Part shown: positions 34,566 to 53,776 of the stretch, in pieces
How the letters are laid out: each line of letters starts with the position of its first letter
Position numbering within the stretch: the stretch's first letter is position 1
Assembly (NCBI GenBank): GCA_044229975.1
Contig: JBGARZ010000015.1
Span: forward strand, 1-64,000
Direction of reading: 5' to 3'
Source: Polyangiales bacterium
GTDB taxonomy: Bacteria > Myxococcota_A > Polyangia > Polyangiales > Ga0077539
DNA length: 64,000 nt
Notes under the pieces: model-generated
Databases searched by the model: none
Told to the model about the DNA's origin: nothing
The model's input: the letters and a program-made list of their open reading frames with translations, nothing else
Program-made: the position numbers and the translations under genes

Positions 34566-35177
34566 CTACCGCATCCGCCGCGATCGCTCCCGCTTCACCG
34601 CCGGGTCGCCTTCGTCCTCACGCTCCGTCCGGCGCCGCTCCGCTGTCGTCGTCCGCAACGCCCGCCGCCACGCCCACTGCCGCCACGCGACGTCCACCAC
34701 ACCCAGCGCCAGCACCGTCCCGCCCAGTCGCCACACGAAGCCCCACCCCGGCGCCGCGCCGTCCCACGCGCTCACGCCCACGGCCAACAGCACCGCTCCG
34801 TAGGCCACCGCCATCGTCGCCGTCGCCCACCCGCCCGGCTCTCCCGACGGGCCCTCTGCGTCCGCCGACCGCCACGCGCCGCGCGTCTGCGCCACCGTCA
34901 CCGCCGTCGCCGCCACCACCGCCGCGCCCAACGTCACCCCCAACGGAACCACCACCCGCGCCGCGACGCTCGACGCCGCTCGCCACGGTTCGACGTCCGC
35001 TCTCGCAGTCAGCGTGAGCATCTCGCGCATCGCGCTCCGCAGCGCGGCGCTCAGCGTCGGCAGCGTCGCGAGCACGGCCACCGCCGTCGCTCCGAACACC
35101 GCCACGCCCGACAGCGGCGATCGCCCCTCGCGGAGCGCGCGGTCGAGCTCGCGCGCGGTCGGTGGCTGCGTCGTCAC
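34566..35177 (-). CDS. Short FlhB/YscU-like membrane protein lacking the NPTH cytoplasmic domain (copy A)
   Basis: T.PPT.R.L.RA.REG N-terminus and LR.T..E.R...E.EGDP.VKR C-terminus. Confidence 0.7.
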   Translation of the reverse strand: MTTQPPTARELDRALREGRSPLSGVAVFGATAVAVLATLPTLSAALRSAMREMLTLTARADVEPWRAASSVAARVVVPLGVTLGAAVVAATAVTVAQTRGAWRSADAEGPSGEPGGWATATMAVAYGAVLLAVGVSAWDGAAPGWGFVWRLGGTVLALGVVDVAWRQWAWRRALRTTTAERRRTEREDEGDPAVKRERSRRMR

Positions 35178-35196
35178 GGCGAGCGATTATAGACGC

Positions 35197-35571
35197 TCAC
35201 TCCGCAGGAACGAGCGCGACCTCGAACATCACCGGCCAGAGCTTCCCCGTCAGGAGAAGGCGTCGCGTCGAGGGCTCGTAGGCGATGCCGTTGAGCACCG
35301 CTTCGGGCTCGGTGAGACCCAGCGAGACTCGTGAGAAGGGCAGCACGATCCAGGCGACGACGCGGCCCGTGGCCGGGTCGATTCGCGCGATGCGGTCGCT
35401 GTGCCAGACGTTGGCGAAGACCTCGCCCTCCACCATCTCCAGCTCGTTGAGCTGGTCGATGGGGTTGCCCCGCCAGGTCACCCGGACGCGTCGTCGCTTG
35501 ACGAAGGTGTCGGGGTCGAGGAAGCGCAGGGTGTCCGTCCCGTCGCTGTGGCGGCGTCGAGCACGCGCACC
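35197..35571 (-). pseudogene. Glutaminyl-peptide cyclotransferase, 3' remnant with internal deletion (copy A)
   Basis: SDGTD...LNELE...ANVW...VLNGIAY...TGKLWP; relative to the intact copy, 49994-50195 is missing and the 5' end is absent. Confidence 0.88.
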
Positions 35572-35966
35572 AACCAGCGGTCGCACCGACCTCGCGCTCT
35601 CGCCCGACCTCATCGTCCTGCCGTACAACCTCTTCGTCCCGATGATGCTGCACCGCCTGCTCCGGGGAGATCAGCGCCGTCGGCACAGAGGGCCCTTCGA
35701 TGAGGGCGGGCGCAGCTCCCGACGCACGTCGCCGACCACGCGCACTTCGCAACCGGAGCGTCTGGTCCACTCGAGCGGAGTCGGGCCCGCGAGGGTGCCC
35801 CGTTGAACCTCCTGTCGGCCTCGACATCGCCGGTCGCGATCGTCTCGGCGCGGGGATCGCCGCCATGGCGGCGGGGGTGGCGGCGGGGTGGCGGCGGGCC
35901 GGCGACGGGCCATGCAATCGGAGCGTGACGCCCTGGTTCCCCGGTGATTTTCGGCGGTGTGAGGGC

Positions 35967-35998: not shown

Positions 35999-37585
35999 AT
36001 GGCCACCGCCGCCACCAATTCGGGCGAGTACGTGCGCCACGACCCGACGCAGACCACGCTGCACGCGCTCGTCGCAAAGCACCTCAAGACCTTCCTCGCG
36101 TTCGCCGAGGAACGCTCGGGACGCGCGCTGCCGCGGTACGTCGTCGAGGAGTTCCACGGGTACCTCCGCTGCGGGGTGCTGGCCCACGGCTTCGGGAGGG
36201 CGCGATGCAGCGGGTGCGGCCACGACATCCTGGTGGCGTTCTCGTGCAAGCTGCGCGGCGTGTGCCCGTCGTGCGGCGGGAGGCGCATGTGCCAGACCGC
36301 GGCGACGGTGTGCGATCGGGTGCTGCCGAACGTGCCGCTGCGGCAGTGGGTGCTGAGCGTCCCGTACGAGCTGCGGAGGGTGCTTGCGGCCGACGCGGCG
36401 ATGCTGACGCGGACGTCGCGGGTGTTCTTCGAGGAGCTGCGCCGCTGGTACCGCGAGGCGAGCGGCCTCGCGCGGAGCGACGTGCTGAAGGTCGAGGCGG
36501 GGGCGATCACCTTCGTGCATCGGGGCGGCGGTTCGCTCAACGCTCATGTGCACCTTCATGTCATCGCTGCGGACGGCGTCTGGCGCTGTGCGACCGACGG
36601 CTCGACGCCGATCTTCGTCGCGACGCGGCCGCCGACGAAGGGCGACCTGGAGGGGGTTCTCGCGCGGGTGGCGGAGCGGGTGGCGAAGGCGATGGAGCGG
36701 GCGGGCGGCGGTGACGGTGACCGCGCGAGGAACGAAGCGCTCGAAGGGTGTCGGCGAGCGGCCAGTGCACGCGGCGAGTATGGCGTGGTGCGCGACGGAC
36801 GGGTGCCGGAGGCAGGCGAGGCCGCGGGCGAGGCGGTCGATGAGGCGCGCTTCGGACGACGGCCTCCGAAGGCGCAGGTGGGCGCGCTGGAGGGGTTCAA
36901 CCTGCACGCGAGCGTGGTGATCGGCGCGACGGACCACGAAGGGCGCGAGCGGCTGCTGCGCTACGTGGCAAGGCCCACGGTGGCGTCCGGGAGGGTGAGC
37001 GAGCTCGCGGATGGGCGCGTGGCGTGGCGGCTGAAGGTGTCCGGCGGGCGCGGGGAGACCCATCGGATCATGGAGCCGATGGAGTTCATGGCTCGCTTGA
37101 GCGCGCTGGTGCCTCCGCCGAGGTTTCCATTGGTGCGGTACCATGGTGTATTCGCACCGAATTCTCCCTGGCGCGTCGCGGTAGTTCCGCTGCGGTCGGC
37201 GTGCGCGGGGGTGAAGGTGAAAGCATGCGCGACTTCGGCGGCGCGTACACGCGAGGGGACGGACGCGACGGAGACGTCTACGACCGCGACCGCGACCGCG
37301 ACGACGGCCCGCGGCGAAGCGAAGGGCGACGACGGGTGGATGTGGACGCCGGACGGCGCCGCGCCGCCAGCGGCAGTACGCACCTCCGGGAGAATGGACT
37401 GGGCCACGCTGATGCACCGCGTGTGGGGCTGGGACGTGCTCGGGTGCCCGCGGTGTGAAGGGCGGTTGCAGTTCATCGCCGTCATCACGCAGCGCGCCGT
37501 GATCGAGCGGATCCTGACGCATGTCGGGCTCTCCGCCGCGCGGATCGTTGCGGCGCCGGCACGGCACTTCGACGACACGAGCTGA
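35999..37585 (+). CDS. IS91/ISCR-family rolling-circle (HUH) transposase, intact
   Basis: Zn-binding CG...C..CG...FSCK.RG.CPSC, RQWVLS.P, HUH in NAHVHLHV, GF.LHA, LLRYVARP, VRYHGVFAP, CP.C.G. Confidence 0.95.
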   Translation: MATAATNSGEYVRHDPTQTTLHALVAKHLKTFLAFAEERSGRALPRYVVEEFHGYLRCGVLAHGFGRARCSGCGHDILVAFSCKLRGVCPSCGGRRMCQTAATVCDRVLPNVPLRQWVLSVPYELRRVLAADAAMLTRTSRVFFEELRRWYREASGLARSDVLKVEAGAITFVHRGGGSLNAHVHLHVIAADGVWRCATDGSTPIFVATRPPTKGDLEGVLARVAERVAKAMERAGGGDGDRARNEALEGCRRAASARGEYGVVRDGRVPEAGEAAGEAVDEARFGRRPPKAQVGALEGFNLHASVVIGATDHEGRERLLRYVARPTVASGRVSELADGRVAWRLKVSGGRGETHRIMEPMEFMARLSALVPPPRFPLVRYHGVFAPNSPWRVAVVPLRSACAGVKVKACATSAARTREGTDATETSTTATATATTARGEAKGDDGWMWTPDGAAPPAAVRTSGRMDWATLMHRVWGWDVLGCPRCEGRLQFIAVITQRAVIERILTHVGLSAARIVAAPARHFDDTS

Positions 37586-37692
37586 CGCGAGGGTGGGCAC
37601 CACGGAAGACAACGGCGACAGCAGGCGAACGGCTGACGACGTGAGGCCGCGGCTTGTCTCGAGGGCACGGAGCGAGGGCCGTTGGATTCGCT

Positions 37693-37872
37693 CATCCAGC
37701 GTCCGATCCCTCCTCTCTGTGACCACAATAGCGTGCAGGTACAGTAGGTTACAGAATCAATATTACACGCAACAGTAAAATGTAGGCGCACGGTCTGCAC
37801 CGCGGCGACGTCTGGTTGGGCCGACCGACGGGGTGCTCCTCAAGCCCACGCGGCATTGGACGCCCTATCCAC
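37693..37872 (+). repeat. 180-bp module, copy 1 (oriIS-like right end)
   Basis: catccagcgtccgat...gcattggacgccctatccac; identical to copy 2 by eye; ends 287 bp after the transposase stop. Confidence 0.95.
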
Positions 37873-38145
37873 AAAGATCGTCCAGCGCAGCTTCATGAAT
37901 GCTCCTCTCGAAACGTTTTCGCGGTTTGGGAGACGCTCCAGGTCCAGCTTAACAACAATCCTCTTCTGGCCCGGTGCCGCCCAGCAAGATGTCGAGACGA
38001 CCACTTCGTCCGTTTATTCACGCTCGTCTGCAGGCGGCGAAGGCGCTCGGCCCCACGCTCCCCGGCCACCCGGGTGTCCCCCGCGCGGGGCCGTCTCGGC
38101 GAGCTTCCAGCGCCCTCGGCCGAGGAGCATCAGAGAGGTCCATCC

Positions 38146-38871
38146 CTACCCGACCGTCCGCTCGAGGCGAATTTCGACCTCGCGCTCGACGAACGTCCAC
38201 TCCTCTCGCGAGCGCAACATGCCGACGAGGTCGTCGAAGGCGCCGCGATGCTCCGGGGCCATCTCGAACCACGTGAGAAAGTCGAACGGCTCCCCAAGGT
38301 CCCTTGAATGGTAAAGTCTTCGGGCAATGCGAGGCAGGTAGGCCATGCTGTCGGCGATGTGGTGGGAACGTGCCTCGAAGATGGCGCGACGCTCGTCCTG
38401 CGGGAGCGCCCACCAAGCAGGGGACTTGCGTATCGGAATGAGCACCGCGAGCGTTGCCTCCGGCCTCGCGAGGGGTGGACTCTGGGAGTCCAGGCGCGCC
38501 TTCTCGCTTCGCTCGACGTACCTGGCATGGCTCGTGACTCCGCGAAGAGCCCACGAGTCATTGCCCTGAGCCGGCGTCTCCGCGAGGCCAGCGAGCACAG
38601 CCACCCGGCTCACCGCGGACAGCGCATCCCCGCGAATCGCAGACATACCTGTCACGCGCCACGGCCCCTCCCTGCCTCCTGTGAAGGTCGCTTGGACTAC
38701 TCCTGGTCGGGTCATTCTCTTCGCCTCTTGAGCTCGGGGTGATGGTGGCGACTGGGGAGGTTCCGCCCCAGCTCCCTTGGCGTTCACGTGGCAGCCGGCC
38801 TCGAGGGCGGCGAGGGTGCAGCTCGCGCCCGCGAGCATGAACGTGCGTCTCGTTGTTCGATGTGCCTTCAT
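38146..38871 (-). CDS. cld: Chlorite dismutase family protein (short type)
   Basis: LIPIRKS.AWW.L.QDERR, HI...YL..IARRLYHSRDL.EPFDFLTWFE. Confidence 0.85.
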   Translation of the reverse strand: MKAHRTTRRTFMLAGASCTLAALEAGCHVNAKGAGAEPPQSPPSPRAQEAKRMTRPGVVQATFTGGREGPWRVTGMSAIRGDALSAVSRVAVLAGLAETPAQGNDSWALRGVTSHARYVERSEKARLDSQSPPLARPEATLAVLIPIRKSPAWWALPQDERRAIFEARSHHIADSMAYLPRIARRLYHSRDLGEPFDFLTWFEMAPEHRGAFDDLVGMLRSREEWTFVEREVEIRLERTVG

Positions 38872-38884
38872 TTTCCGCGCCTCG

Positions 38885-39100
38885 TTAAGGCAACACGCAT
38901 TTTCCGCTGATACACTTCGCTCCCCTTGGGCAGGCCTTTCCGCATCCGCCGCAGTTTCCAGGGTCCGTCATTTTGTCGATGCACTTACCCCCGCTAGAAG
39001 CAAACGAACAGAAACTTTTCGGTGCATCACACGTCTGGCACCGATAGGCCCCGTCGGGTCGCTTGAAGCACTTTTGGGGCGACTCGCACGACATACCGCA
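38885..39100 (-). pseudogene. 3' fragment of a Cys-rich repeat protein gene
   Basis: ...CIDKMTDPGNCGGCGKACPRGAKCISGKCVLP*; 5' part replaced by the 54-bp repeat. Confidence 0.7.
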
Positions 39101-40213
39101 AGAGCGTAAGTAAATCAAGGCACTTTTCAGGGGTGTCGGCTGGGCTCGCGGGGATGGCGTTTCGCGACCTTCCGGGGTCGCGGCGGGCGCGCCGAGGCGG
39201 TCTCGGCCCTGGCACGGAGGTTGCCGAACCCCACCAAGCGCCATGCCGGCGCAGCGCGGCCTTCGGGCGCCCCTTGCGCACGTTCTACTCGGCTGCCTCG
39301 ACGCTACCGGCACCTCGACGGAGGACTCGACTTGCCCAGTACGGAGGCCCTCGAGCGGGCGTGCGCTTCGGCACGTCGGTGGGCTCGCCAATGCCCCGCA
39401 GGTACCGAGCGACGCTGGTCGGATCGGTGACGAGCGCGAGCAGCTTCATCCTTCCGCTGCAGCACGGGCAGGTCAAAACGTCGAACCCAAAGGTCCGTTT
39501 AAGAAGCTCCGCCCACGGACGATAGCCGCCTCGGCGCGGTCTCTCGGGCACGTCCACCGTGGGTATTGGAGCAACCGCCGGCTTCGGCGCCAGACGAGCC
39601 CGAACCTTACTCGCCGACGCGAGCACCCCCGCATACCGAACGGTGTGCAAGCGCGGCGCGGGTACCGACGCCGCGAGACGGCTGAGCAGCGAGAGTGGAT
39701 CCATGTCCACCGCCACCGTGCCGTCCGAAAAAGGCTTCTTCAGCGTGATCCGGACGAGGCCGTCAGGCCCTCGGGTCACGCGTTCCTGCGCGACCGCGGG
39801 GCGCAACACGTACTTCAGCAGTGCCTCCCGGCCAGCTTCGTCGTGCCCACCGGCCCGCGTCGCCGCGTGGAGGGTGAAACCATCGAGCGCGACACACAGC
39901 GGGCGCTCGAACACCATGGGTCGGCACTCGAAGAGCAGCGCGCCTCGGCGCCACTCCGGACCGGCAGGCGGCGTAGTGCCCGAGACCGCCGACGCCGCGA
40001 GCACGGCCCTCCCGTCGCCCTCATCCTCGGAATCGCTGTCCTCGACGAGAAGGCCCCGACGACGAAGCCACTTCACCATCCGGTCGCGCGTGCGCTCCAG
40101 CACCGCCCCCACGTCCCGCGTCGACAGGTGCCGAGCGGCACGGAAGTCGAGCTCGTCGCTCCCCGCGAGCCCAGCCGACACCCCTGAAAAGTGCCTTGAT
40201 TTACTTACGCTCT
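39101..40213 (-). mobile_element. IS91-family remnant bounded by perfect 54-bp inverted repeats
   Basis: 39101-39154 is the exact reverse complement of 40160-40213; encloses a transposase C-terminal half. Confidence 0.88.
39285..40159 (-). pseudogene. C-terminal half of a second, divergent IS91-family transposase
   Basis: GFTLHA, GRE.LLKYVLRP, VRYAGVLA, WAELLKR.FG.DVL.CP.C.G; Zn finger and HUH motif absent. Confidence 0.88.
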
Positions 40214-41108
40214 CGGACTGGGTAAGACCGAGGCAGTAGCCGTAGAGGGTCTCGAGCTCGGCGTCGTCGTTCTTCGGGGTCTGCTCGCGGAGCTCGCGGA
40301 GGAGCACGAGCGCGGAGGGGAGCTCGGCGCGACGGACGAGGCCGCGCGCTTTGAGCCGCGCGAGGACCGGATCGCGGGCCGCCTCGCCCTTGGTCGAAGG
40401 GGGCGGAGGCTCGGGCGTGCTCGCGGGCGCCTTCTGCGCGTTCATGATCCGCGGCTCGCTCATCGGCGGCTCTTTGCGCGGATCGTAGGGCTCCGCGCGC
40501 TTCTGCACACCGGAGATGGGGATCTCGACCGACGGAGGCCGGAGCGGGCTCGGGGCGCGGAACTGCATCGACGCGCGGCGGAGCGCCTCCGTCTCGGGGG
40601 TGACCGTGGCGACACGAGCGCGCCGGAGGAGCAGGAGGGCGTACACGATTCGCGCATCGACCGCCGACACGCGCGAGAGCTCGAACGCGCTGAGCGGCTT
40701 CGGCTCCGACAAGAGCTTCGCGACGCGCGCCTCGGCGTCGGAAAGCTCGAGGTCGGCGAGCTGCTCGAGGAGGCCGAAACCCGATGCACCTTGCACGTAT
40801 CCCGCGAGCACGATCGGCCGATCGCCGACGCGATCGAGGGCTTCTCGTGCGCGGGGGGGCAAGAACACCTCGCGGAGACCACGGAGCACGGCGCGCCCCA
40901 CCGACACCGGCACGTCGTCGCGCCCATAGGTGGGGATGAGGTCGAGGCGGTCGTAGAAGCCGAACCGGGTGCTGCCCGGAAGGTGGAAGAGAGACGCGAG
41001 CTTGCGCGTGAGCTGCTCGCCGACCGCGATCGCGACGAGGTCGGGGGACACCATGCCCCGCTCCTTCACGATGTCCCCGAAGAGCACCTTCGGCGTACGG
41101 GTGGAGGC
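40214..41108 (-). pseudogene. Internal fragment of a myxobacterial DUF4388/DnaJ-associated-type protein gene
   Basis: LFGDIV...EQL.RKL..LF.LP..T.F.FY motif, Pro-rich linker, start of a TPR-like helix; cut at both ends by repeats. Confidence 0.6.
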
Positions 41109-41288
41109 CATCCAGCGTCCGATCCCTCCTCTCTGTGACCACAATAGCGTGCAGGTACAGTAGGTTACAGAATCAATATTACACGCAACAGTAAAATGTA
41201 GGCGCACGGTCTGCACCGCGGCGACGTCTGGTTGGGCCGACCGACGGGGTGCTCCTCAAGCCCACGCGGCATTGGACGCCCTATCCAC
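41109..41288 (+). repeat. 180-bp module, copy 2
   Basis: Identical to 37693-37872, with unrelated flanks. Confidence 0.95.
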
Positions 41289-41351
41289 CGGTCTCCTGGG
41301 GGTGCGCCTGCGCTGTCGACGCCTACGGGTCGCGGTTCTCCCCAGGCAGCG

Positions 41352-42398
41352 TCACTGCCGCATGCAGCGGAACCCGACGCCGGTCGAGTACGACACCTCG
41401 AGGCCCTCGCGGTACCAGGCGCGCACGTCGTTGGCGCTGGTGCTGCGCCAGTTGCCTCCACGGATGATCCGGATCGTGCTGCCCCCCGTGCTCACGGGGT
41501 CGTCCACGTACGTGGTCATATTGCCCGTATAGGTGAAATACCGGTCCGAGGTGAGCTCGGCGATGCCCCCGCCCATATCGAACAACCCACGAGCCCCTGC
41601 GGGGAACATGCGCACCGGGCAGGTGTTCGGCTGGATGGTGCCGCCGCCACTCCAGCACAGTTGAGCGCCGGGCGCCTCTGGCCCCCACGGGTACATCCGT
41701 CCGTCGACCCCGCGCGCCGCGTACTCCCACTGCGCTTCGGTGGGGAGGCTCGCGCCACCGCGCCACACGCAGTACGCGATCGCCTGCTCCGCCGTGACGC
41801 AGTTGATCGGGTGATCGTCGCGCCCGGAGACGCCCCAATTGCAGGCCGGGAGCGTCGCCGTCGGCGTGCACCCCATCGCGGTCGGACACTCGCGATAAGC
41901 GCGCACGGTCACCTCGGTGACGTCCAGGCAGAACGCCCTCAAGCGAACGCCATGCACCGGCAGGGCGAGCGGCTCCGTCCCCGTCGCATCCCCCATCAGG
42001 AACTGACCTGCGGGGATGAGCGCCATGCCCGCAGGACAGCCCGTCCCCGTGTCGGTTGTCCCGACGTCGGTTGTCCCGATGTCGGTTGTCCCGATGTCGG
42101 TTGTCCCGATGTCGGTTGTCCCGATGTCGGTTGAGCCGATGTCGGTTGAGCCGATGTCGGTTGTCCCGATGTCGGTTGAGCCGGAGTCCGCGGGAGGGGC
42201 GTCGATCGCCAGGGGGCGGTCGTCGGGGGCATCCGTCGCGACGTCCGATGGGCTGCCTGCGTCCGGCGAGCGCGAGTAGTACCTCCAATCGTCGCGGACA
42301 CAGGCGAGCGCGCCCACGACGGTCCAGAGCGCGACGAGTCGACCTACCCGGCGGAGAGGCATCGGCAGACCGTCCCCCGCAGCGGTCGGCGCTGTCAA
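41352..42398 (-). CDS. Formylglycine-generating-enzyme (FGE/SUMF1) domain lipoprotein
   Basis: G.F.MG, D.TEVT, P.NCV, LPTEAQWEYAARG, RGG.W, GFRC; start uncertain. Confidence 0.9.
   Translation of the reverse strand: MTAPTAAGDGLPMPLRRVGRLVALWTVVGALACVRDDWRYYSRSPDAGSPSDVATDAPDDRPLAIDAPPADSGSTDIGTTDIGSTDIGSTDIGTTDIGTTDIGTTDIGTTDVGTTDTGTGCPAGMALIPAGQFLMGDATGTEPLALPVHGVRLRAFCLDVTEVTVRAYRECPTAMGCTPTATLPACNWGVSGRDDHPINCVTAEQAIAYCVWRGGASLPTEAQWEYAARGVDGRMYPWGPEAPGAQLCWSGGGTIQPNTCPVRMFPAGARGLFDMGGGIAELTSDRYFTYTGNMTTYVDDPVSTGGSTIRIIRGGNWRSTSANDVRAWYREGLEVSYSTGVGFRCMRQ
42051..42183. repeat. 15-bp coding tandem repeat (about 9 units, (T/S)TDIG)
   Basis: gtcggttgtcccgat / gtcggttgagccgat units. Confidence 0.9.
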
Positions 42399-42453
42399 CG
42401 CCGATGGGCATGGCGGGCCGCTGCGCAGAGACCCCGCGGCGCCGCCCTGGACG

Positions 42454-42939
42454 TCAGTCGCGCGTCACCCCGGCATCGCACACCGCGCGGACGACGCAGC
42501 GCCATCGCAGACCAGCCTCCGCCGCGCCGCAGTAGCAGTCCCAGTCGAGGAGCCTCCGGTTGCCCGGGCTGCCGCAGTTCCACCAATTCTCGCAGTAGAC
42601 GCCTGGCGTGTCGCACTGGCCCTGGTCGCCCGACGGGTCGAACTGGAAGCAGGTGTGGAGGTCACCCTCGCAGTCGAAGAAGCGCATCAACTCGGCGCAC
42701 GAGCGCACGCGCCCACCGACCTCGCTCGCCATCACGGGACGATCGAAGCCGACATCCGGGGCGGGAACATCCGATGCGACCGTGGCATCCATCGCGTCGA
42801 TGTCGTTCACATCGGACACGTCGGACGCATCGATCACGGCTGCATCCGCGCTCGCGTCCGTCGGGCCGCGCGGGTCTTCGTCGCACCCCATGGCGAGCGC
42901 CGCGATCAGCGCTCCGAGTCCGTGAACACGCTCCACCAT
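42454..42939 (-). CDS. Small Cys-containing lipoprotein
   Basis: LAMGC lipobox, DA-rich linker. Confidence 0.65.
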   Translation of the reverse strand: MVERVHGLGALIAALAMGCDEDPRGPTDASADAAVIDASDVSDVNDIDAMDATVASDVPAPDVGFDRPVMASEVGGRVRSCAELMRFFDCEGDLHTCFQFDPSGDQGQCDTPGVYCENWWNCGSPGNRRLLDWDCYCGAAEAGLRWRCVVRAVCDAGVTRD

Positions 42940-43183
42940 CTGATCACGAGTGGTACATCCAAAGCGGCCGCCAGGCGCGCGACGGGGAGTCACCGGCGGT
43001 AGCGGTCGACGAGGTCGCCACGGCCATGGCGATCGCGGTCGCATCATACCGGAGCCGCTGTACGGTCAACCTGGCGGGCCGTGGTGGCCGGGGACCGACG
43101 AAGCGGTGGAGGCCTCGTTTTTACCGAGAAGTGTATGCACCGAAGGGTCCGTGTCCCCTTCGGAGTCCAGAGACCTCTCTGCG

Positions 43184-43397
43184 GTTCGACGCGATGGTCG
43201 GCAGTCCCGTGAGCCAGACCCGGAGCGCGAGCGACGGCCACTGCCGACGCGACGCCCGCGTTGCCAGATTGCTTTCCGGCACGTGGAGATCGCTCTTCGA
43301 AAGCGTCGTCGGAGTTCTCGACTGGCAACGCGAGCGTCGCGTCCCGTGGCTCGCGCTCCGGGTCTGGCTCAGGGGACTGCCGACCATCGCGTCGAAC
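43184..43397. repeat. Long intergenic inverted repeat (arms about 80 bp)
   Basis: 43184-43267 pairs with 43322-43397 with a few mismatches and one indel. Confidence 0.88.
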
Positions 43398-43465
43398 TGG
43401 AGATGGCATCGCCGTCGACTGGCCCGACGTTGACCCATCCACGGTCGCTCGGCGAAGGTTCCGCC

Positions 43466-45319
43466 ATGAGCACCCGACCGACCGCCGCATCGTGGACCCT
43501 GCTCGTGGTCGCCCTCGCCGCGTCGGCCTGCTCGTCGGACAACCTGGTCGCGGGCGTCGACGGCGGCGGCTCCGTCGATGTCCCCATCATCACCAATGAC
43601 CTCGGCGCAACCATAGATGCGCCCGTCGATGTGTCCACGATCGACGCTCCTGCGGTCGACGTGCCCTTCCGATGCGCCTCCGAGGCCGACTGCTCGGGCA
43701 ACACCACGGGCTCCGTCTGCGATGTGGCCACTGGCCGCTGCGTTGCCTGCACCGCCGCGCGCGACGTGTGCCCGACCGGCCAGCGCTGCGACGACGCGAG
43801 CCACGCGTGCGTCGCCGGGTGCCGCGACGACTCCTCGTGCGCCACGACCACGGGAGCCGACAGCTCGGTCGGCGCTCGCCGCCGCTGCGACCTCAACTCG
43901 CGCGCCTGCGTCGACTGCCTCGTCAACGACGACTGTCCCGCCGGGACCCTCTGCGTCGGCAACCTCTGCGTCGCCGGCTGCGCCGGTGGGAGCCGCTGTC
44001 CCACGGGCCAGAGCTGCTGCGCCGGCGCGTGCGTCGACACGCTCGCCAACGTGGCGCACTGCGGCCGATGTGATGCGCGGTGCAGCGTTCCCAACGGGGG
44101 CGCCTCGTGCCTCAACGGCGCATGCTCGGTGGCCACCTGCGCGGCCCCGTACGGTGACTGCGACCGCGACGCCGCCAACGGGTGCGAGACCAACACGCTC
44201 ACCGCCGTCGCCCACTGCGGCGCGTGCGGCGCCGCCTGCCCCACGCGCGCCAACGCCAGCGCCACCTGCGCGGGCGCGACCTGCGGGTACACCTGCAACG
44301 CGGGCTTCGCCGACTGCGACGGCGACGCGACCAACGGCTGCGAGGTCGACACCCGCACCGACACCGCCCACTGCGGAACCTGCACGACGATGTGCTCGCT
44401 CCCGCGTGCAACAGCGGCGTGCGTGGCAGGCGGGTGCCAGGTCACGGCCTGCACCGCGGGCTACGCGGACTGCGACGGCGCAGCGTCCAACGGCTGCGAG
44501 AGCGACACGCGGGTCGACGTCTCCCATTGCGGCGGGTGCGGTCGGGCCTGCGCCGTCCGACCGAACGCGGCGCCCGCCTGCGTAGGCTCCGCCTGCGTGA
44601 CGACGTGCATCGCGGGGTACTCCGACTGCAACACCGTCGAGGCCGACGGGTGCGAGCGCAACCTGCGCAACGACCCGGCCAACTGCGGCGCGTGCGGGCG
44701 CGCGTGCGGAGCGGGCGGTGCGTGCTGCGAGGCGACCTGCGCGACGACCGCCAGCGACCCGGCCAACTGCGGCGCGTGCGGGCACGCATGCGCAGCGAAC
44801 GAGGCCTGCGAGTCGGGTCGCTGCCAGGCCGCGCTCGGGTGCGCGTCGGGGCCGAGGCGGGGGTTCACGGACGTCGCTGCGTTTCCGCGCATCGCGGCGT
44901 GTGGGGCGCGGGTGAGCTTCGCGGCGGCGACGACGACGGCGGCCACGGTGTGCGCGCCGGGCTGGCACTTCTGCAACCCCGCCGACCTCAACGCGACGAC
45001 GGGGACAGCGCCGGACTTCGTCCCGGCCGACGCGATGGGGTGGGTGCTCTACACCGACCCGACGACGACGGTGTGGGGCGACTACTCGGTCGCCGCGTGC
45101 GGCGGGGTGACGCCCGCGGTGGCGAACCTCGCGGGCACTGGTGCGTGCACGGCTTCGGGGGTCTACCCCGAGGGCTGGCGGCTCGCGACGTCGACGTCGT
45201 ACTGGCCGTGGTCGCACCGCAGCAGCAGCGGGTGCGTCGAGCACGCGGTGCACATGTGCATCACCGACGGCGGGACGATCCCGGCGACGACGGCGTACGT
45301 GCTCTGCTGCGCGCCCTGA
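43466..45319 (+). CDS. Cys-rich repeat surface lipoprotein
   Basis: ASAC lipobox; repeats of C..G.ADCD...NGCE......HCG.CG..C. Confidence 0.85.
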   Translation: MSTRPTAASWTLLVVALAASACSSDNLVAGVDGGGSVDVPIITNDLGATIDAPVDVSTIDAPAVDVPFRCASEADCSGNTTGSVCDVATGRCVACTAARDVCPTGQRCDDASHACVAGCRDDSSCATTTGADSSVGARRRCDLNSRACVDCLVNDDCPAGTLCVGNLCVAGCAGGSRCPTGQSCCAGACVDTLANVAHCGRCDARCSVPNGGASCLNGACSVATCAAPYGDCDRDAANGCETNTLTAVAHCGACGAACPTRANASATCAGATCGYTCNAGFADCDGDATNGCEVDTRTDTAHCGTCTTMCSLPRATAACVAGGCQVTACTAGYADCDGAASNGCESDTRVDVSHCGGCGRACAVRPNAAPACVGSACVTTCIAGYSDCNTVEADGCERNLRNDPANCGACGRACGAGGACCEATCATTASDPANCGACGHACAANEACESGRCQAALGCASGPRRGFTDVAAFPRIAACGARVSFAAATTTAATVCAPGWHFCNPADLNATTGTAPDFVPADAMGWVLYTDPTTTVWGDYSVAACGGVTPAVANLAGTGACTASGVYPEGWRLATSTSYWPWSHRSSSGCVEHAVHMCITDGGTIPATTAYVLCCAP

Positions 45320-45364
45320 TTCTCTCCCGACGGCTCCGCGCGGCAATGCAGCGTATCGAGACCT

Positions 45365-46276
45365 TCAGCGTGACGCTTCGTTCACGAGCCAATCGCGGAA
45401 GGCGACCAGCTTCGGAAGGGCGGCGCGCTCGGGCCGATAGACGATGTAATAGGCAAGCACCGAGGAGAACTCGACGTCGGGGAAGAGCCGCACCAGCCGG
45501 CCCGCCGCCAGGTCGTCCCGCGCCATGATGCTGCGGGCCAACGCCACGCCCAGCCCGTCGATCGCCGCCTGGAGCACCCCGGCGGAGTTGTTGATCCGTA
45601 GGCCTCGCTTCGTTTTGACGTCGCCCATCCCGGCCTTCTCCAACCACGCGTCCCACGTCGCGAAGCCGGAGTGCGCGTCGACCGACAGGTCGTGGATGAG
45701 GCTCGGTCCGGCAAGGTCCGCCGGCCTGCGAAATCGGCGGTTTCGCTGGAAGACGGCCGGAGAACAGACGGGATAGATCTCCTCGTCCATGAGCTTCTCG
45801 GCAGTCAGGCCCGGCCACGTCCCGGCGCCGTAGCGCACCCCGATGTCGATGCCGCGTGCGGCGAAGTCGAGCACCTCCATGGAGGCGTCGAGCCTCACGT
45901 CCGTGTCGGGCCACCGCGCTTGAAACCGCTCGATGCGTGGAAGTAGCCACTTGGCCGCGAAGGCCGGGCTGACGGTCACGGTCAACACGCCGTTGGCCGA
46001 CCCCTCCTTGAGTCGCGCAAAGCCGAGGCTCAACCGGTCGAACCCCGCGCGGATGTCAGGCAGGGCGCGCTGAGCCGCCTCGGTCGGCACAAGCCGCGTC
46101 CGGCCGCTCGTACTTCGATGAAACAGCGCCGTGCCGAGCGTCTCCTCCAGGCTTCGTACGAGCTGCCCGACGGCCGCGGGCGTCACGTGGAGCTCGGACG
46201 CGGCGGCCGAGAAGCTCTCGTGCCGAGCGCTCGCCTCGAAGGCGCGCAGCGCGTTCAGATGATCGGGCGCCCTCAA
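45365..46276 (-). CDS. LysR-family regulator (GcvA-like)
   Basis: LNALRAFEASARH.SF..AA.EL.VT..AV..., KWLLPR...F. Confidence 0.93.
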   Translation of the reverse strand: MRAPDHLNALRAFEASARHESFSAAASELHVTPAAVGQLVRSLEETLGTALFHRSTSGRTRLVPTEAAQRALPDIRAGFDRLSLGFARLKEGSANGVLTVTVSPAFAAKWLLPRIERFQARWPDTDVRLDASMEVLDFAARGIDIGVRYGAGTWPGLTAEKLMDEEIYPVCSPAVFQRNRRFRRPADLAGPSLIHDLSVDAHSGFATWDAWLEKAGMGDVKTKRGLRINNSAGVLQAAIDGLGVALARSIMARDDLAAGRLVRLFPDVEFSSVLAYYIVYRPERAALPKLVAFRDWLVNEASR

Positions 46277-46489
46277 GGACGGCCAAGACTTTCTTTGCCA
46301 GCAACCAAGATCTTATGCTTTGCGATGTCCCGCCTTCGCATCGATATTGGAGTCTCACGGATCGAGGAAAACTCCCGACGTCGGCGCGACACGGCCCCTT
46401 GGGTCACACGAACCCAGGCCTGCCGTCAAGAGCGCTTGTCGGGACAGTTTTTCTTTCACACAACGCCTCGTGTCCCAAGGAGAACCCCA

Positions 46490-46771
46490 ATGGTCTATTT
46501 GCAAATCACCCTACAGATCGCCCCCGCCAACCGACCCGCGGCTGCGGATGTCTACCGGCGCTATCGGTCGCCCTTTCTCGACACGGTCGCCGGGGCGAAG
46601 TCGAAGGTCCTGCTCGTCCGCGAGGACGACGTCCAGGTGCTGCACGGCTTCGATACGGCAGAACAGGCGAACGCCTACCTGAAGAGCGCTCTCTTCACGG
46701 CCGACGTCGTCGGCGCGCTCAAGCCGCTGCTCGCCGCCGCGCCGGACGTCCGGGTCTATCAAGCGGCCTGA
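46490..46771 (+). CDS. Small conserved-looking protein divergent from the LysR gene
   Basis: AAGGAG RBS; MVYLQITL...LLVREDDVQVLHGF. Confidence 0.8.
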   Translation: MVYLQITLQIAPANRPAAADVYRRYRSPFLDTVAGAKSKVLLVREDDVQVLHGFDTAEQANAYLKSALFTADVVGALKPLLAAAPDVRVYQAA

Positions 46772-46802
46772 CGCCCTCCCGCGCAGGCGACTACGCCGAC
46801 GC

Positions 46803-47399
46803 TCACCCCAGCACGCGCACCCTGAACCCTCCGAGCAGGGTCACCACCTTCGTCAGCGGCAGCCCGATCACCGCCGTGAAGTCGTCTCCGCGTATCCCCT
46901 CGAAGAGCGCGATGCCCAGCGACTCCACCCGGTACGAGCCCGCGCAGTCCAGCGGCGCGTCCCTCGCCACGTAGTCCGCGATCTCCTCGTCCGTCAGCGC
47001 CCGCATCGTCAGCGTGTGCGTGTCGATCATCGTCTCGGTGCGACCGCTCGCCCGGTGATGCACCGCCACCGCCGTGTGCTGCCGGTGCTCACGGCCCGCC
47101 AGCCGCCTCAGCTGAGCCCTCGCCCGCTCCGCTGTATGCGGCTTGCCCAGCGCCTCGCCGTCGACCTCGCCCATCTGGTCGGCGCCGATGATCACCGCGT
47201 CTGGAAACGCCTCGCCCAGACCCACAGCCTTCCCGATGGCCAGCACTCGGGCTCGCTCGGGGATGGGCAGCGCGCCGAGTCCGTCCTTCGCGGCCTCCTC
47301 GTCGAAGGGCGTCGCCATACACTGCACGGTAATCCCGAGCCGCTCGATGAGCTCCCGGCGGTACCGCGACGTCGATGCGAGGATCACCGTCGTCGTCAT
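46803..47399 (-). CDS. maf: Maf-family nucleoside triphosphate pyrophosphatase (YceF-like)
   Basis: ILASTS.YRRELI, IGADQ, GKP, PLDCAGSY..E, GLPL. Confidence 0.92.
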   Translation of the reverse strand: MTTTVILASTSRYRRELIERLGITVQCMATPFDEEAAKDGLGALPIPERARVLAIGKAVGLGEAFPDAVIIGADQMGEVDGEALGKPHTAERARAQLRRLAGREHRQHTAVAVHHRASGRTETMIDTHTLTMRALTDEEIADYVARDAPLDCAGSYRVESLGIALFEGIRGDDFTAVIGLPLTKVVTLLGGFRVRVLG

Positions 47400-48002
47400 G
47401 CGAGTGGATCGTCCACTTCGACCTCCGCCGCCCGCTGCCGCCGCGCCGCCAGCCGAGACTGCGCGTACTTCACCAGCGGTTCGACGTACGCGTCGAACGG
47501 CGGACACTCCACCCCGCGCGCCATGAGCAGGCCGCGCGCCCCCGTGTCGGCGTAGCGCGCCCTCGTGGCGAGGCGATCGACGAAGGCCCGCGGGCTGCGG
47601 GTGAGCCGCTCCAACCCCGGCGTGTTGAGCAGCGCCCGTGTGAGGTTCACCGGAACCATCCCCCGCGGAACCCTCCGCCCCGCCACCTGCGCGATGCGCT
47701 CGAAGGCCGCACCCGTCGACGGTGGCGTCGGGTCGACCACATGGAAGGTTCGCCCCACCGCTTCGCGTGCCGCCCCGAGCGCAACCCCCGCCCGCGCCAC
47801 GTGATCGACCGGAACCACATGCAGCGGCAGGTCACCGCCCGCCGGCAATGGGAGCTGCATGTCCACCGGCGAGCTCAGCATCAACACGATGAAGAGGTAC
47901 GGCCCGTCGAAGAGGTCGATCTCGCCGGTCTGCGAGTCGCCCACGATCATCGACGCGCGCAGCACCGTCACCGGCAGCGTGGTCATCGCGCGTCGCAGCA
48001 GC
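47396..48002 (-). pseudogene. 3' fragment of an extended-SDR / male-sterility-type oxidoreductase
   Basis: LPVTVLR.S.IVGDSQTGEI..FDGPY, VPVD.VA, TFH.VDP; the N-terminal Rossmann fold is missing, cut at module copy 3. Confidence 0.82.
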
Positions 48003-48175
48003 CATCCAGCGTCCGATCCCTCCTCTCTGTGACCACAATAGCGTGCAGGTACAGTAGGTTACAGAATCAATATTACACGCAATAGTAAAATGTAGGCGCA
48101 CGGTCTGCACCGCGGCGACGTCTGGTTGGGCCGACCGACGGGGTGCTCCTCAAGCCCACGCGGCATTGGACGCCC

Positions 48176-49187
48176 GGCTCATGTTCCCCTCGGGGTGATG
48201 GGCCTGAGCAACTGGGCGAGGAAGCCCAGGAAGTCGTGCCGGAAGTTGTGCATGCCTTGGTAGAAGGCCAGGTAGAGGTCGAGGTTCCACTTGCTCACGC
48301 CGCGGAAGGGTCGGAGGTAGTTCCGCAGGCCGAGCCAGAAGCCCTCGATGGTGTTGGAGTGCACCTCTCGGATGCCGTCCCCATCATCGTCGCGCGCCCA
48401 CTCCTTGCGCTTGTGGTTGACCGAGAAGCGCGTTCGACCTCGGTCGTCTAGGTCGTCGTAGGCATGCCACTCATCGGTGTGGACCTCGGTGCCGGGGTCC
48501 GTCACGCGCAGGACCACGGGCTCGATCGCCTTCACCGTGCTGCGATACGTCTGCCGCAGGAACACTTGACCGGACTCCCGGCCAATCACTCCGAGAATGG
48601 GCGGGCGATCGTTGTCGAAAGTGCCATGTCCATTGAAGTGATGGCCGCGCCGACGCGGTGGGTCATCGGGATCGGGATGGGGGCGGCCCTTCTCCCCGGC
48701 GTTCTGGTACATCTCGTCGGCTTCCACGAGACGATCGGGCAGGGCGCAGGGGGGAAAAGCGTTCAAGCGCCATGCCCTGAACGCGGTGTCGCAGTCGGAG
48801 CAGGTTGCGTCGACCGACACCAAGCTCCTGCGACAGATGCAGCGTAGTAACGCCCTGACAGAAGCCGCGCAGGATCATGACCAATCGCGGGGACGAGAAG
48901 CGCACTCCCTGAAGCGGCGTGCCGGTGAACACGTTGAAGACCTTGCCGCAGGCGCGACAGCGGTAGTCCACCACGGGCTCACGGTGACGATCATGGGGCG
49001 CTTGATCGTCGGGTAGCTCGTGTCCCTCGGGGCAGCGGAGGCCCTCCGGGTGGATCGCCTCCAGCAGCAGCCGGTAGCACGCGCCCTCGTCCAGCAGGTC
49101 GTCGATCGGGAACAGCATCGTGCCTGATCCGTACCTCCAACCGGAGCTCCCCGGAAGGGGGCGTTCACCCCGAGGGGAACATGAGCC
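48176..49187 (-). mobile_element. IS1595-family insertion sequence (1012 bp)
   Basis: Perfect 23-bp IR GGCTCATGTTCCCCTCGGGGTGA; 8-bp TSD GGACGCCC at 48168-75 and 49188-95. Confidence 0.93.
48179..49118 (-). CDS. IS1595 transposase split over two frames
   Basis: OrfA: Zn ribbon (CP.G...YRCRACG..F...TGT) and HTH; OrfB: VEADEMY, TDEW..Y, VNH, H.NTIEGFW; frames overlap at TTTTCCCCCC. Confidence 0.85.
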
Positions 49188-49202
49188 GGACGCCCTATCC
49201 AC

Positions 49203-49623
49203 CACCGTCCCACGCGCTCACGCCCACGGCCAACATCACTGCCCCGTAGGCCAATGCCATCGCCGCCGTCGCCCACGGGCTCGGCTCCCCCGACGGACCC
49301 TCCGCGTCTGACGACCGCCACGCGCCGCGCGTCTGCGCCACCGTCACCGCCGTCGCCGCCACCACCGCCGCGCCCAGGGTCACCCCCAACGGAACCACCA
49401 CCCGCGCCGCGACGCTCGCCGTCGCCCGCCACGGGTCGACGTCCCCGCGCGCAGCCTGCGTGAGCATCTCGCGCATCGCGCTTCGTAGCGCCGCGCCCAA
49501 GGCCGGCAGCGTCGCGAGCACGGCCACCGTCGTCGCGCCGAACACCGCCACGCCCGACACGGGCGATCGCCCATCGCGGAGCGCGCGGTCGAGCTCACGC
49601 GCGGTCGGCGGCTGCGTCGTCAC
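49203..49623 (-). pseudogene. FlhB/YscU-like gene, 3'-truncated (copy B)
   Basis: Homologous to 34759-35177; cut after ...AWDG by the module end. Confidence 0.85.
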
Positions 49624-49642
49624 GGCTCGCGATCATAGACGC

Positions 49643-50443
49643 TCACTCTGCCGGAACGAGCGCCACCTCGAACATCACCGGCCAGAGCTTGCCCGTCAGG
49701 AGAAGTCGCCGCGTCGAGGGCTCGTAGGCGATGCCGTTGAGCACCGCCTCGGGTTCGGTGAGGCCGAGCGAGAGGCGCGAGAAGGGCACCGTGATCCACG
49801 CGACGACGTGGCCGGTGGCCGGATCGATGCGCGCGATGCGGTCGCTGTGCCAGACGTTGGCGAAGACCTCGCCCTCCACCATCTCCAGCTCGTTGAGCTG
49901 GTCGATGGGGTTGCCCCGCCAGGTCACCCGAACGCGTCGTCGCTCGACGAAGGTGTCGGGGTCGAAGAAGCGCAGGGTGTCGGTTCCGTCGCTCATGATG
50001 AGGAGGTGGCCGTCGTGCGTGAGGCCCCAGCCTTCGCCCTCGTAGCCATGAGTGGTCACGGGCTCTAGCGTCGCGGCGTCGTACACGAAGCAGGTCTGCG
50101 TCTGGTAGGTGATCTGGAAGACGCGGTTGCCGAGGACGGTGAGCCCTTCGGCGAAGTGTTCGTCGGACACCTCGCGGCGTCGCGTGATGGCGCCGGTGGT
50201 GGCGTCGAGCACGCGCACCGACGACCGGCCGCGCAGGCCGGTGCTCTCGTAGAGGGCACCCGCGTGGAAGGTGAGCCCCTGGAGGAACGCCTCGCGATCG
50301 TGGGGAATGCGCGCGATGACGCGGGCCGTGTAGCGCGTCGGCGGCGTGGTCGGGGCGGTCGGAGCCGCGGGCGCGACGGGCGAGGGGAGGGCGGGGAAGC
50401 AGCCCGGGAGCATGACGAGGGCGACGACGGACAGGCGCACCAT
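49643..50443 (-). CDS. Glutaminyl-peptide cyclotransferase (intact copy B)
   Basis: PHD..AF.QGL, ESTG, FAEGL, GEGWGL, SDG, LNELE, LNGIAY, TGK.WP. Confidence 0.93.
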   Translation of the reverse strand: MVRLSVVALVMLPGCFPALPSPVAPAAPTAPTTPPTRYTARVIARIPHDREAFLQGLTFHAGALYESTGLRGRSSVRVLDATTGAITRRREVSDEHFAEGLTVLGNRVFQITYQTQTCFVYDAATLEPVTTHGYEGEGWGLTHDGHLLIMSDGTDTLRFFDPDTFVERRRVRVTWRGNPIDQLNELEMVEGEVFANVWHSDRIARIDPATGHVVAWITVPFSRLSLGLTEPEAVLNGIAYEPSTRRLLLTGKLWPVMFEVALVPAE

Positions 50444-51473: not shown

Positions 51474-51776
51474 GCGGGACGACGGTCGTTGTACCCGCTC
51501 GTGGCCGGGGTTGGTCGCGTCCCGCGCCTGCACCACCGGGCAAGCGAAAGCAGGCGCCCCTTCGGGGCTTTCGGAAGCAATCGGCCACCGCGATCGGGCT
51601 CAGTGTCCCGTCCCACGCCGCGGCGTCAGCGCGGCGCGCGAAGGCTACGTCAACAATCCCCCGTTGATTGGGGGGCTGACCGTTGCGCGCCGCGCTGACG
51701 CCGCGGCGTGGGCTCCAACTGGGAGCCCGACCTCACTGTTGAGCGCTTCTGGAAGCCCCGGAGGGGCGCCTGCTTT

Positions 51777-53701: not shown

Positions 53702-53776
53702 CGCTTGCCCGGTGGTGCAGGCGCGGGACGCGACCACACCCGGTCCGAAGTGGTCGCACGATCACCCGATGACCTG

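Follow-up and report, generated by a model that had tools for sequence, protein, structure and literature searches.

Direct arrays of a transposon right-end module in a Polyangiales bacterium and a plausible variant of ISCR gene capture

Why should a rolling-circle transposase gene be followed by three copies of one short sequence, each set between pieces of genes that do not belong together? The question is raised by a stretch of 64,000 nucleotides (positions 1 to 64,000 of contig JBGARZ010000015.1, assembly GCA_044229975.1, of a Polyangiales bacterium; hereafter the window), in which an initial annotation, made from the letters alone, described an HUH transposase followed by three direct, near-identical 180-bp modules and proposed that these are the joining units of a cassette-like array of captured DNA. 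A repeat finder, BLAST, and Pfam bear out this layout, and the segments between the modules, announced as 3.2 and 6.7 kb, measure 3,236 and 6,714 bp. The structure is real and well supported, and the comparisons below make it plausible that it represents a new variant of ISCR gene capture working in an integron-like mode. The features on which the argument turns are the following (slash, cut or join).

35999..37585, +: ISCR-like HUH (Y2_Tnp) transposase, 528 amino acids, open frame, with Zn_Tnp_IS91 (PF14319) and Y2_Tnp (PF04986) domains
37681..37694, +: internal site X, GTTGGATTCGCT/CA, with CA as the first two bases of the module
37693..37872, +: module M1, with the right half of X, a dif-like core, and an oriIS-like end (repeat finder and BLAST)
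37746..37773, +: dif-like core, AGGTTACAGAA-TCAATA-TTACACGCAAC; also at 41162-41189 and 48056-48083
37856..37872, +: oriIS-like end, TTGGACGCCCTATCCAC, with CCTAT + 4 nt in the register of the ISCR1 oriIS
41109..41288, +: module M2, joined to host DNA at GC/CA
48003..48175 and 49196..49202 (span 48003..49202), +: module M3, joined at GC/CA, its ori motif interrupted

M1 and M2 are 100% identical, M3 is one substitution away, and BLAST finds these three copies, all direct and all at this locus, as the only ones in the 10.0-Mb, 39-contig genome. Their right terminus, TTGGA(T/C)GCCCTAT(C/T)C(G/A)C, had been likened to the oriIS consensus; it indeed stands in the same register as the published ISCR1 oriIS, GTGGTTTATACTTCCTATACCC (PMC13023784), and the CCTAT + 4 register is shared by the termini of all four plasmid ISCRs compared (ISCR1 and three others). 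At 66 unique junctions, among which a few degenerate ends may be off register, ori is followed by C 36 times, by T 19 times, by G six times, and by A five times; this pyrimidine bias at +1 (55/66) was found alone, without the fixed tetranucleotide target that lies beside oriIS in IS91, IS801, and IS1294 proper. In the transposase, H185-x-H187 and Y322 are invariant relative to ISCR1, ISCR2, and two others. Its identity to plasmid ISCRs is 33-35%, and it scores below the NCBIfam cut-offs both for ISCR clade Ia (NF052416; 275 bits, cut-off 925) and for IS91 (91 bits, cut-off 125), being nearer to ISCR than to IS91 and on a separate branch from ISCR clade Ia in the tree. The junction tables show neither terminal inverted repeats nor target duplication, as in IS91/ISCR elements, and a miniature inverted-repeat transposable element was rejected on the same two grounds. 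Mobilisation of DNA on the transposase side of ori is seen comparatively, in the sister family only, from the filled and empty states of the C10 site described below. By these marks, the system can be assigned to the IS91/ISCR superfamily, as a member of neither ISCR clade Ia nor IS91 proper, and the 180-bp modules can be identified as the right end of an ISCR-type HUH element.

The left boundary of the module is not a chance break, since it lies inside a clade-wide motif, site X, whose consensus TTGGANTCGST/CA holds to the left and to the right of the cut. Within the same family, GGGCCGTTGGATTCGCT always precedes the copy next to the transposase, and among 52 unique downstream regions 29 contain X, at 72-110 bp from the stop codon. 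The 23 regions without it comprise those of four plasmid ISCRs, of 12 transposases that are more distant (some followed by degenerate X look-alikes), of the second element of the window, and of six copies that are truncated or rearranged. On a quick maximum-likelihood tree of transposases, in which the X rows were labelled by the analyst, such rows make up 21 of the 23 in one branch (Shimodaira-Hasegawa-like approximate likelihood ratio test, SH-aLRT, 97%), and the other two are at contig ends with no downstream DNA. From CA to ori, each sub-family has a piece of 109-190 bp that recurs elsewhere as a solo copy joined to host DNA. The base before CA is then C at 48 of 50 family-A junctions (GC in 35) and at 62 of 66 across all families (GC in 43, AC in 11), with about 36% C expected from composition. 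One 100%-identical donor (L019 against L056) shows GC to be host-derived, and homologues at 75-90% identity bear GC out in about 7 of 12 cases. That a family's own last two ori bases are copied into the left join proved not to be general, since GC joins also occur in families whose ori ends in CTC or CCC.

How, then, did the solo copies come to lie in host DNA? The two flanks of a module had been said never to belong together, and this is what the comparisons show: in 0 of 16 testable modules does a module-free homologue of the left flank continue into the right flank (the 16 come from 57 modules with both junctions, the left-flank homologue having to reach the junction, and a few of them share ancestry), so that simple insertion, including unit insertion of the IS801 type, was rejected. 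Likewise, where both sides are coding, the reading frame is the same across the module in 0 of 7 cases against 270 of 287 control positions. Since there are no simple insertions and donors of the right join do not follow the C rule (C before the join in only about 4 of 9 usable cases), the two joins are either made separately or always split later. The arrays also gain and lose units exactly: L036 reads ...GAGCGC/M/CGGAGG... and ...CTCAGC/M/CCGCTG..., and L112 and L116 have extra [segment + module] units at precisely these points; moreover, one right flank can be found beside different left flanks, and one left flank beside different right flanks. On C10 of the window's own genome, a module of family B, the sister family, and about 1.8 kb separate two genes whose spacing in four relatives is 58-146 bp; the ori end abuts the stop codon of the first gene. 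Judged by this filled site, the pattern is that of one-ended capture, for which a figure of 1-14% is given for IS91 and IS1294 (PMC13181058). A reading of the C10 site as an internally deleted copy of the window element was wrong; a host gene is followed there by the family-B module.

Modules of this kind are not confined to the window. In relatives, compared by BLAST as the initial annotation proposed, the same two ends recur, and the copies are tied to the transposase clade. Matches occur in 9 of 61 genomes, namely the genome itself, five of eight others of the genus (70-80%, same two ends), and three with short, weak matches. A pattern scan of 185,579 species genomes returned 25 stretches, 18 of them in four assemblies titled Deltaproteobacteria, Myxococcales, or Myxococcaceae; the remaining seven, from other phyla and without a module match, were taken as chance. 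A scan of metagenomes gave 22 stretches, 19 with a module, while 13 pattern matches among viral contigs yielded no confirmed phage carriage. The longest array has seven direct modules behind a transposase remnant (G002:C11), and five modules each are found in G002:C148 and, behind a transposase, in G026:C27. Adjacent modules are co-oriented in 57 of 79 pairs, counted over 59 loci picked by the analyst. Family-B copies are clustered in the window's own genome, where 11 of 24 matches have a co-oriented neighbour within 10 kb (0.5 expected; maximum 6 in 2,000 random sets). Because no testable module has contiguous flanks, the copies are linked to the clade, and assemblies made independently show this array layout again, they appear to be neither simple insertions unlinked to this transposase family nor a product of misassembly, the two outcomes that had been named in advance as counting against a joining unit.

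Inside the module lies a mimic of the site at which XerC and XerD act. The window core has the 11-6-11 arrangement of such sites and matches the host dif at 16 of 22 arm positions, including an unusual TTCTGT. The host site was found with a matrix of 53 module cores, whose only strong match outside modules is G000:C38:71448-71475, ACTTCGCATAA TATGTA TTCTGTAAACT (38.6 bits, the next 20.8). It is conserved in 18 of 31 family genomes (single in 17, double in one) and lies at a polarity flip of FtsK-orienting polar sequences (13:1 on the left, 5:11 on the right), and it is probably the chromosomal dif of the lineage. In this lineage TTCTGT replaces TTATGT in one arm of dif, and variants differ by genus. 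Among correctly cut, transposase-adjacent modules, 13 of 19 score at least 14, a level that no more than 2 of 200 shuffles reached. Of the left-truncated family-A modules, three of 14 start in the spacer, and one half-module type is fused at the same base, the edge between spacer and TTA arm, to five partners in four genomes (L190, L094, L039, L211, and L057). In a second fusion another family is joined at the spacer with the arm damaged, and a third lies just beyond the arm. The genome encodes a XerD over the cut-off and a XerC-like protein under it. Because the module carries this mimic, at which heterologous modules appear to have been exchanged, the reshuffling of arrays is probably not the work of the HUH enzyme alone, and recombination within the array is likely by XerCD at the dif mimic, by RecA, or by both. 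The view of the module as the joining unit of an array built by an HUH enzyme survives in its oriIS end, its link to the clade, and the recurrent array layout, and gives way as to the sole agent. Two further sites are worth recording: at L033:14705-14777 a family-A ori end meets the spacer region in the dif-like core of a different family, and at L254 (G117) a very dif-like site, without the strict X motif, immediately follows a transposase of the order that is more distant.

The reading that we prefer, with rather better than even confidence, is that of a solo right-end module at which the transposase would cut and join, at oriIS and at X, while host recombination would add units to direct arrays and remove them. 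The transposase would form the ori/host join in the manner known from ISCRs, by insertion or by closure of a circle, and in a separate event the host/CA join at X. A solo module, having no left half of X, would then allow rolling-circle copying to run on into its left flank, giving [segment + module] circles that could recombine into an existing module. The FlhB-like/cyclase duplication flanking the window array (34759-35547 and 49205-49993, 91% identical) may be the trace of such an entry of a whole unit by homologous recombination. A similar entry of circles, with a flanking duplication, has been proposed for ISCR1 complex integrons (PMC13023784).

Several observations weigh against this reading. 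The base at -1 of X is T where host joins have C, which leaves the cutting rule at X unexplained. The ends of segments mostly map to different donors, so the segments are mosaics and not clean single captures. A dif-like core went undetected in 6 of the 19 correctly cut transposase-adjacent modules, including the five-module array family of G026, and a recombination hotspot confined to the core found no support, as linkage among 51 family-A modules drops also near columns 25, 137, and 158. Two pairs with shared right flanks differ through the TTA arm and match only beyond it, and RecA could therefore explain much of the reshuffling; spacers are diverse (26 types in 53 modules), by which canonical Xer exchange would be hindered. 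Opposed neighbours, with families mixed, account for 22 of the 79 adjacent pairs, and several of these are abutting fragments of two families. Lastly, none of the contigs of four sequencing runs bridges a module junction of the exact window array, a result that is uninformative either way.

A bolder form of the same idea would be a two-enzyme, integron-like capture platform, in which the ISCR-like HUH enzymes of one clade tag arbitrary chromosomal DNA, through X, with an end module of 110-190 bp, and the host's XerCD stacks, excises, and swaps the tagged pieces at the dif mimic, even across families. We hold this to be a serious possibility, but one of less than even standing. The description of the locus as a cassette-like array fits in part: the array is direct and its units come and go exactly, but the cargo is mostly cut genes and gene fragments, and no attC-like fold was found in the module. 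A hairpin between its CATCCA start and the TGGATG near its end was unsupported (z -1.2 and +0.95), no consensus structure was found on either strand among 47 modules, Rfam recognises no known RNA family in the modules, and the search for an outward sigma-70 promoter in the module found none.

It is rather unlikely that the modules are by-products of the kind known from IS801, such that copying from ori halts prematurely at X, the resulting miniature goes in whole, and RecA, recombining the copies later, scrambles the flanks, with the dif core passive and the arrays mere debris. IS801 does yield right-end fragments of 229, 360, and 679 nt in 26% of events, for which its authors suggest mainly a role as recombination homology (PMC3189936), and the present modules are mosaics, with breakpoints spread along their length and mostly broken genes as cargo. 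However, the simple insertions that this account predicts are missing. The IS801 fragments have no conserved left motif bar a tetranucleotide (PMC3189936), whereas X is conserved on both sides of its cut across a clade. Furthermore, at the spacer edge there are in-register fusions of half-modules unrelated in sequence, in which RecA would find no homology.

We consider it improbable that X is an outward second origin, nicked on the top strand at T/CA and copied rightward in a Helitron-like manner until closure at GC or AC, so that the mobile unit would be [module + right segment]. On the top strand, the preferred bases stand 5' of the join, which is the usual polarity of HUH nicking, and the low frequency of C before the right join in donors implies that the two joins obey different rules. 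Yet the C10 insertion has its cargo on the X side and ori at the target, as ordinary leftward capture would have it, the cases of gain and loss fit either definition of the unit, and for IS91 only the bottom-strand circle is functional (PMC13181058).

Very improbable is a left join made by another recombinase, of the host or of a mobile element, that recognises X while the transposase acts at the ori end only. The cut falls within X, whose T stands in the place of the C of host joins, and the genome encodes 12 tyrosine-recombinase domains (PF00589). Nevertheless, X and the ori end share the motif GTTGGA, X always stands some 70-110 bp behind a transposase of its own clade, host flanks share merely 1-2 bases with X, and the window contig (C14) has no recombinase gene, hence no integron integrase either. 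Finally, that an assembler jumped between strains across a dispersed 180-bp repeat, yielding the 91%-identical flank duplication as well, is hardly credible: the estimated contamination of the assembly (3%) and the unbridged junctions would allow it, but the genome has just the three module copies of this one locus, the architecture recurs in genome and metagenome assemblies of other organisms, the junctions obey the base rule, and both flank alleles are near-identical in other runs.

The closest known systems are ISCR1, ISCR2/ISVsa3, ISCR28, and the complex class 1 integrons, with which the present one shares an HUH transposase, a downstream oriIS in the same register, the absence of target duplication, one-ended capture, and, for ISCR1, the model of entry by homologous recombination with its flanking duplication (PMC13023784). 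For ISCR28, capture between two sequential oriIS is reported, as cited in PMC12772301. Unlike in these elements, the repeat unit here is a transposase-free module of 109-190 bp whose fixed left end lies at a conserved internal site, which is absent, under the pattern used, from all four plasmid ISCRs examined; in addition, the window modules carry a dif mimic, and unrelated fragments are held in arrays with as many as seven modules. As a precedent for the module, the miniature right-end derivatives of IS801 come nearest (Bardaji et al. 2011, PMC3189936), short IS91-family right-end pieces with an intact ori; they were recovered as insertions trapped in sacB and have a target-like tetranucleotide, with no other motif, at their end, in contrast to the clade-wide boundary, arrays, and absence of simple insertions found here. 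For the Xer step, a precedent is given by the pdif (XerC/D) modules of Acinetobacter plasmids, where dif-like sites punctuate arrays of acquired DNA (PMC9771954); these sites are standalone and, by the title of a paper cited there, inversely oriented around a module, whereas ours lie within a transposon end and are mostly direct. The analogy with integrons (IntI, attI/attC) is partial: an enzyme gene, a primary site, and a direct array of exactly gained and lost cassette-like units are common to both, but here there is no integrase on the contig, no consensus hairpin, and cut genes instead of whole-gene cassettes. Helitrons capture gene fragments by HUH rolling-circle replication; the present system, by contrast, is bacterial, no helicase domain was found, and its fragments are separated by repeated end modules. 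No paper on IS91/ISCR end modules with a dif/XerCD mimic in arrays was found among the listings and abstract openings searched, a coverage outside which most subscription journals fall.

ISCRs are linked to the spread of resistance genes, and their capture of DNA is still a model; only four IS91-family members have been shown to transpose, according to PMC13181058. The X clade offers a natural series for comparison: it has about 66 junctions of either kind and a second cutting site that is conserved, its units are gained and lost exactly, and there are signs that modules are exchanged at a dif mimic. Strand, site, and enzyme thereby become directly testable with short oligonucleotides. If XerCD takes part, rolling-circle transposons would be linked to the route used by pdif and by integrative mobile elements exploiting Xer (IMEX), and gene arrays would be built without an integrase. 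The module likely lets its hosts collect and reshuffle foreign DNA somewhat as integrons do, and the system may shape the accessory genome of these sludge bacteria.

The other features of the locus are the following.

34566..35571, -: left flank, whole FlhB-like gene and glutaminyl-cyclase remnant
35578..35684, +: host-gene fragment, aldo-keto-reductase-like by reading alone, 90% identical to the C10 copy
35686..35819, +: degenerate module of sister family B, co-oriented, directly upstream of the transposase (E 3e-20)
35855..35900, +: candidate left end, a terIS-like palindrome CGCCGCCATGGCGGCG and GGGGTGGCGGC repeats, of putative function
37873..41108, unstranded: captured segment 1, with a cut gene start, a chlorite-dismutase-like gene, a cut Stig1-like gene, the 3' half of a second IS91-like element, and a 5'-cut gene
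39101..40213, -: second IS91-like element, transposase 3' half at 39285-40159, end at 39101, inverted 54-bp end copy at 40160-40213
41289..48002, unstranded: captured segment 2, with an FGE-sulfatase-like gene, a Stig1-repeat protein, a LysR regulator, Maf, and a cut short-chain dehydrogenase/reductase (SDR) gene
46806-48002, end of segment 2: cut SDR gene, 87% identical to the host's own intact copy on C23
48176..49187, -: IS1595-family insertion sequence, with an 8-bp duplication GGACGCCC at 48168-48175 and 49188-49195
49203..50443, -: right flank, with the FlhB-like gene cut and the glutaminyl-cyclase gene whole

The genes that had been described as cut at the outer junctions are cut for the most part as stated. 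The gene start with ATG at 37896 has its AGGAG ribosome site, and a contig from an independent sludge run matches it at 100% from 37943 down to 37873, where non-module DNA then takes the place of M1. The frame at 40214-41108 is open up to M2 and has no start, while its DUF4388 label lacks Pfam support. The SDR gene matches its intact host homologue up to base 48003, and the FlhB-like fragment begins at the end of M3, with the full 91%-identical copy at 34566-35177. In relatives, the FlhB-like gene is single-copy and adjoins feoB, the FlhB-like/cyclase region is merely 71-75% alike, and the cyclase, searched with the window query, was found in none of the eight same-genus genomes. The cyclase remnant has lost about 200 bp internally; after ...GCAC at its break, CAACCAGCG (35571-35579) resembles the module left end (CATCCAGCG) at an AC/CA join and is possibly a deleted module.

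The transposase stands inside a longer row of joins, because a fourth, family-B module lies at 35686-35819. Similarity to relatives begins at the candidate left end, and terIS-like palindromes and repeats occur upstream of related transposases; the motif is also found reversed and ahead of other genes. Uma2-family genes preceded by CCGCCACCCC repeats recur beside modules (L028, L116, L152, L153, and L160), and this repeat also lies upstream of transposases, in either orientation.

M3 ends at 49202 because an IS1595-family element, at 48176-49187, has inserted in it. Elements of this family with GGCTCATG ends occur repeatedly within module oriIS motifs, in several genomes and module families (besides the window, in L004, L057, L154, and L162, twice in L231, and at G000:C1:42836 and G000:C36:290288), and they are possibly insertion sequences that target ISCR origins.

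Within segment 1, the second IS91-like element (39101-40213) is a half-element whose terminal 54 bp are repeated, inverted, as a cap; its 3' half is near-identical in four sludge or wastewater runs, where the element runs normally past 40159. In segment 2, GACGCCCTCCCGC at 46769-46782, close to the Maf homology boundary, looks like a decayed ori end and may be chance. A group II intron with an intact reverse transcriptase/maturase, the sole Rfam match in 34000-54500, lies at 51480-53750 and has several near-identical copies in the genome. Long inverted repeats occur at 43178-43403 (60 nt, 93%) and at 51594-51730 (51 nt, 80%), the latter being part of a repeat with many genome copies.

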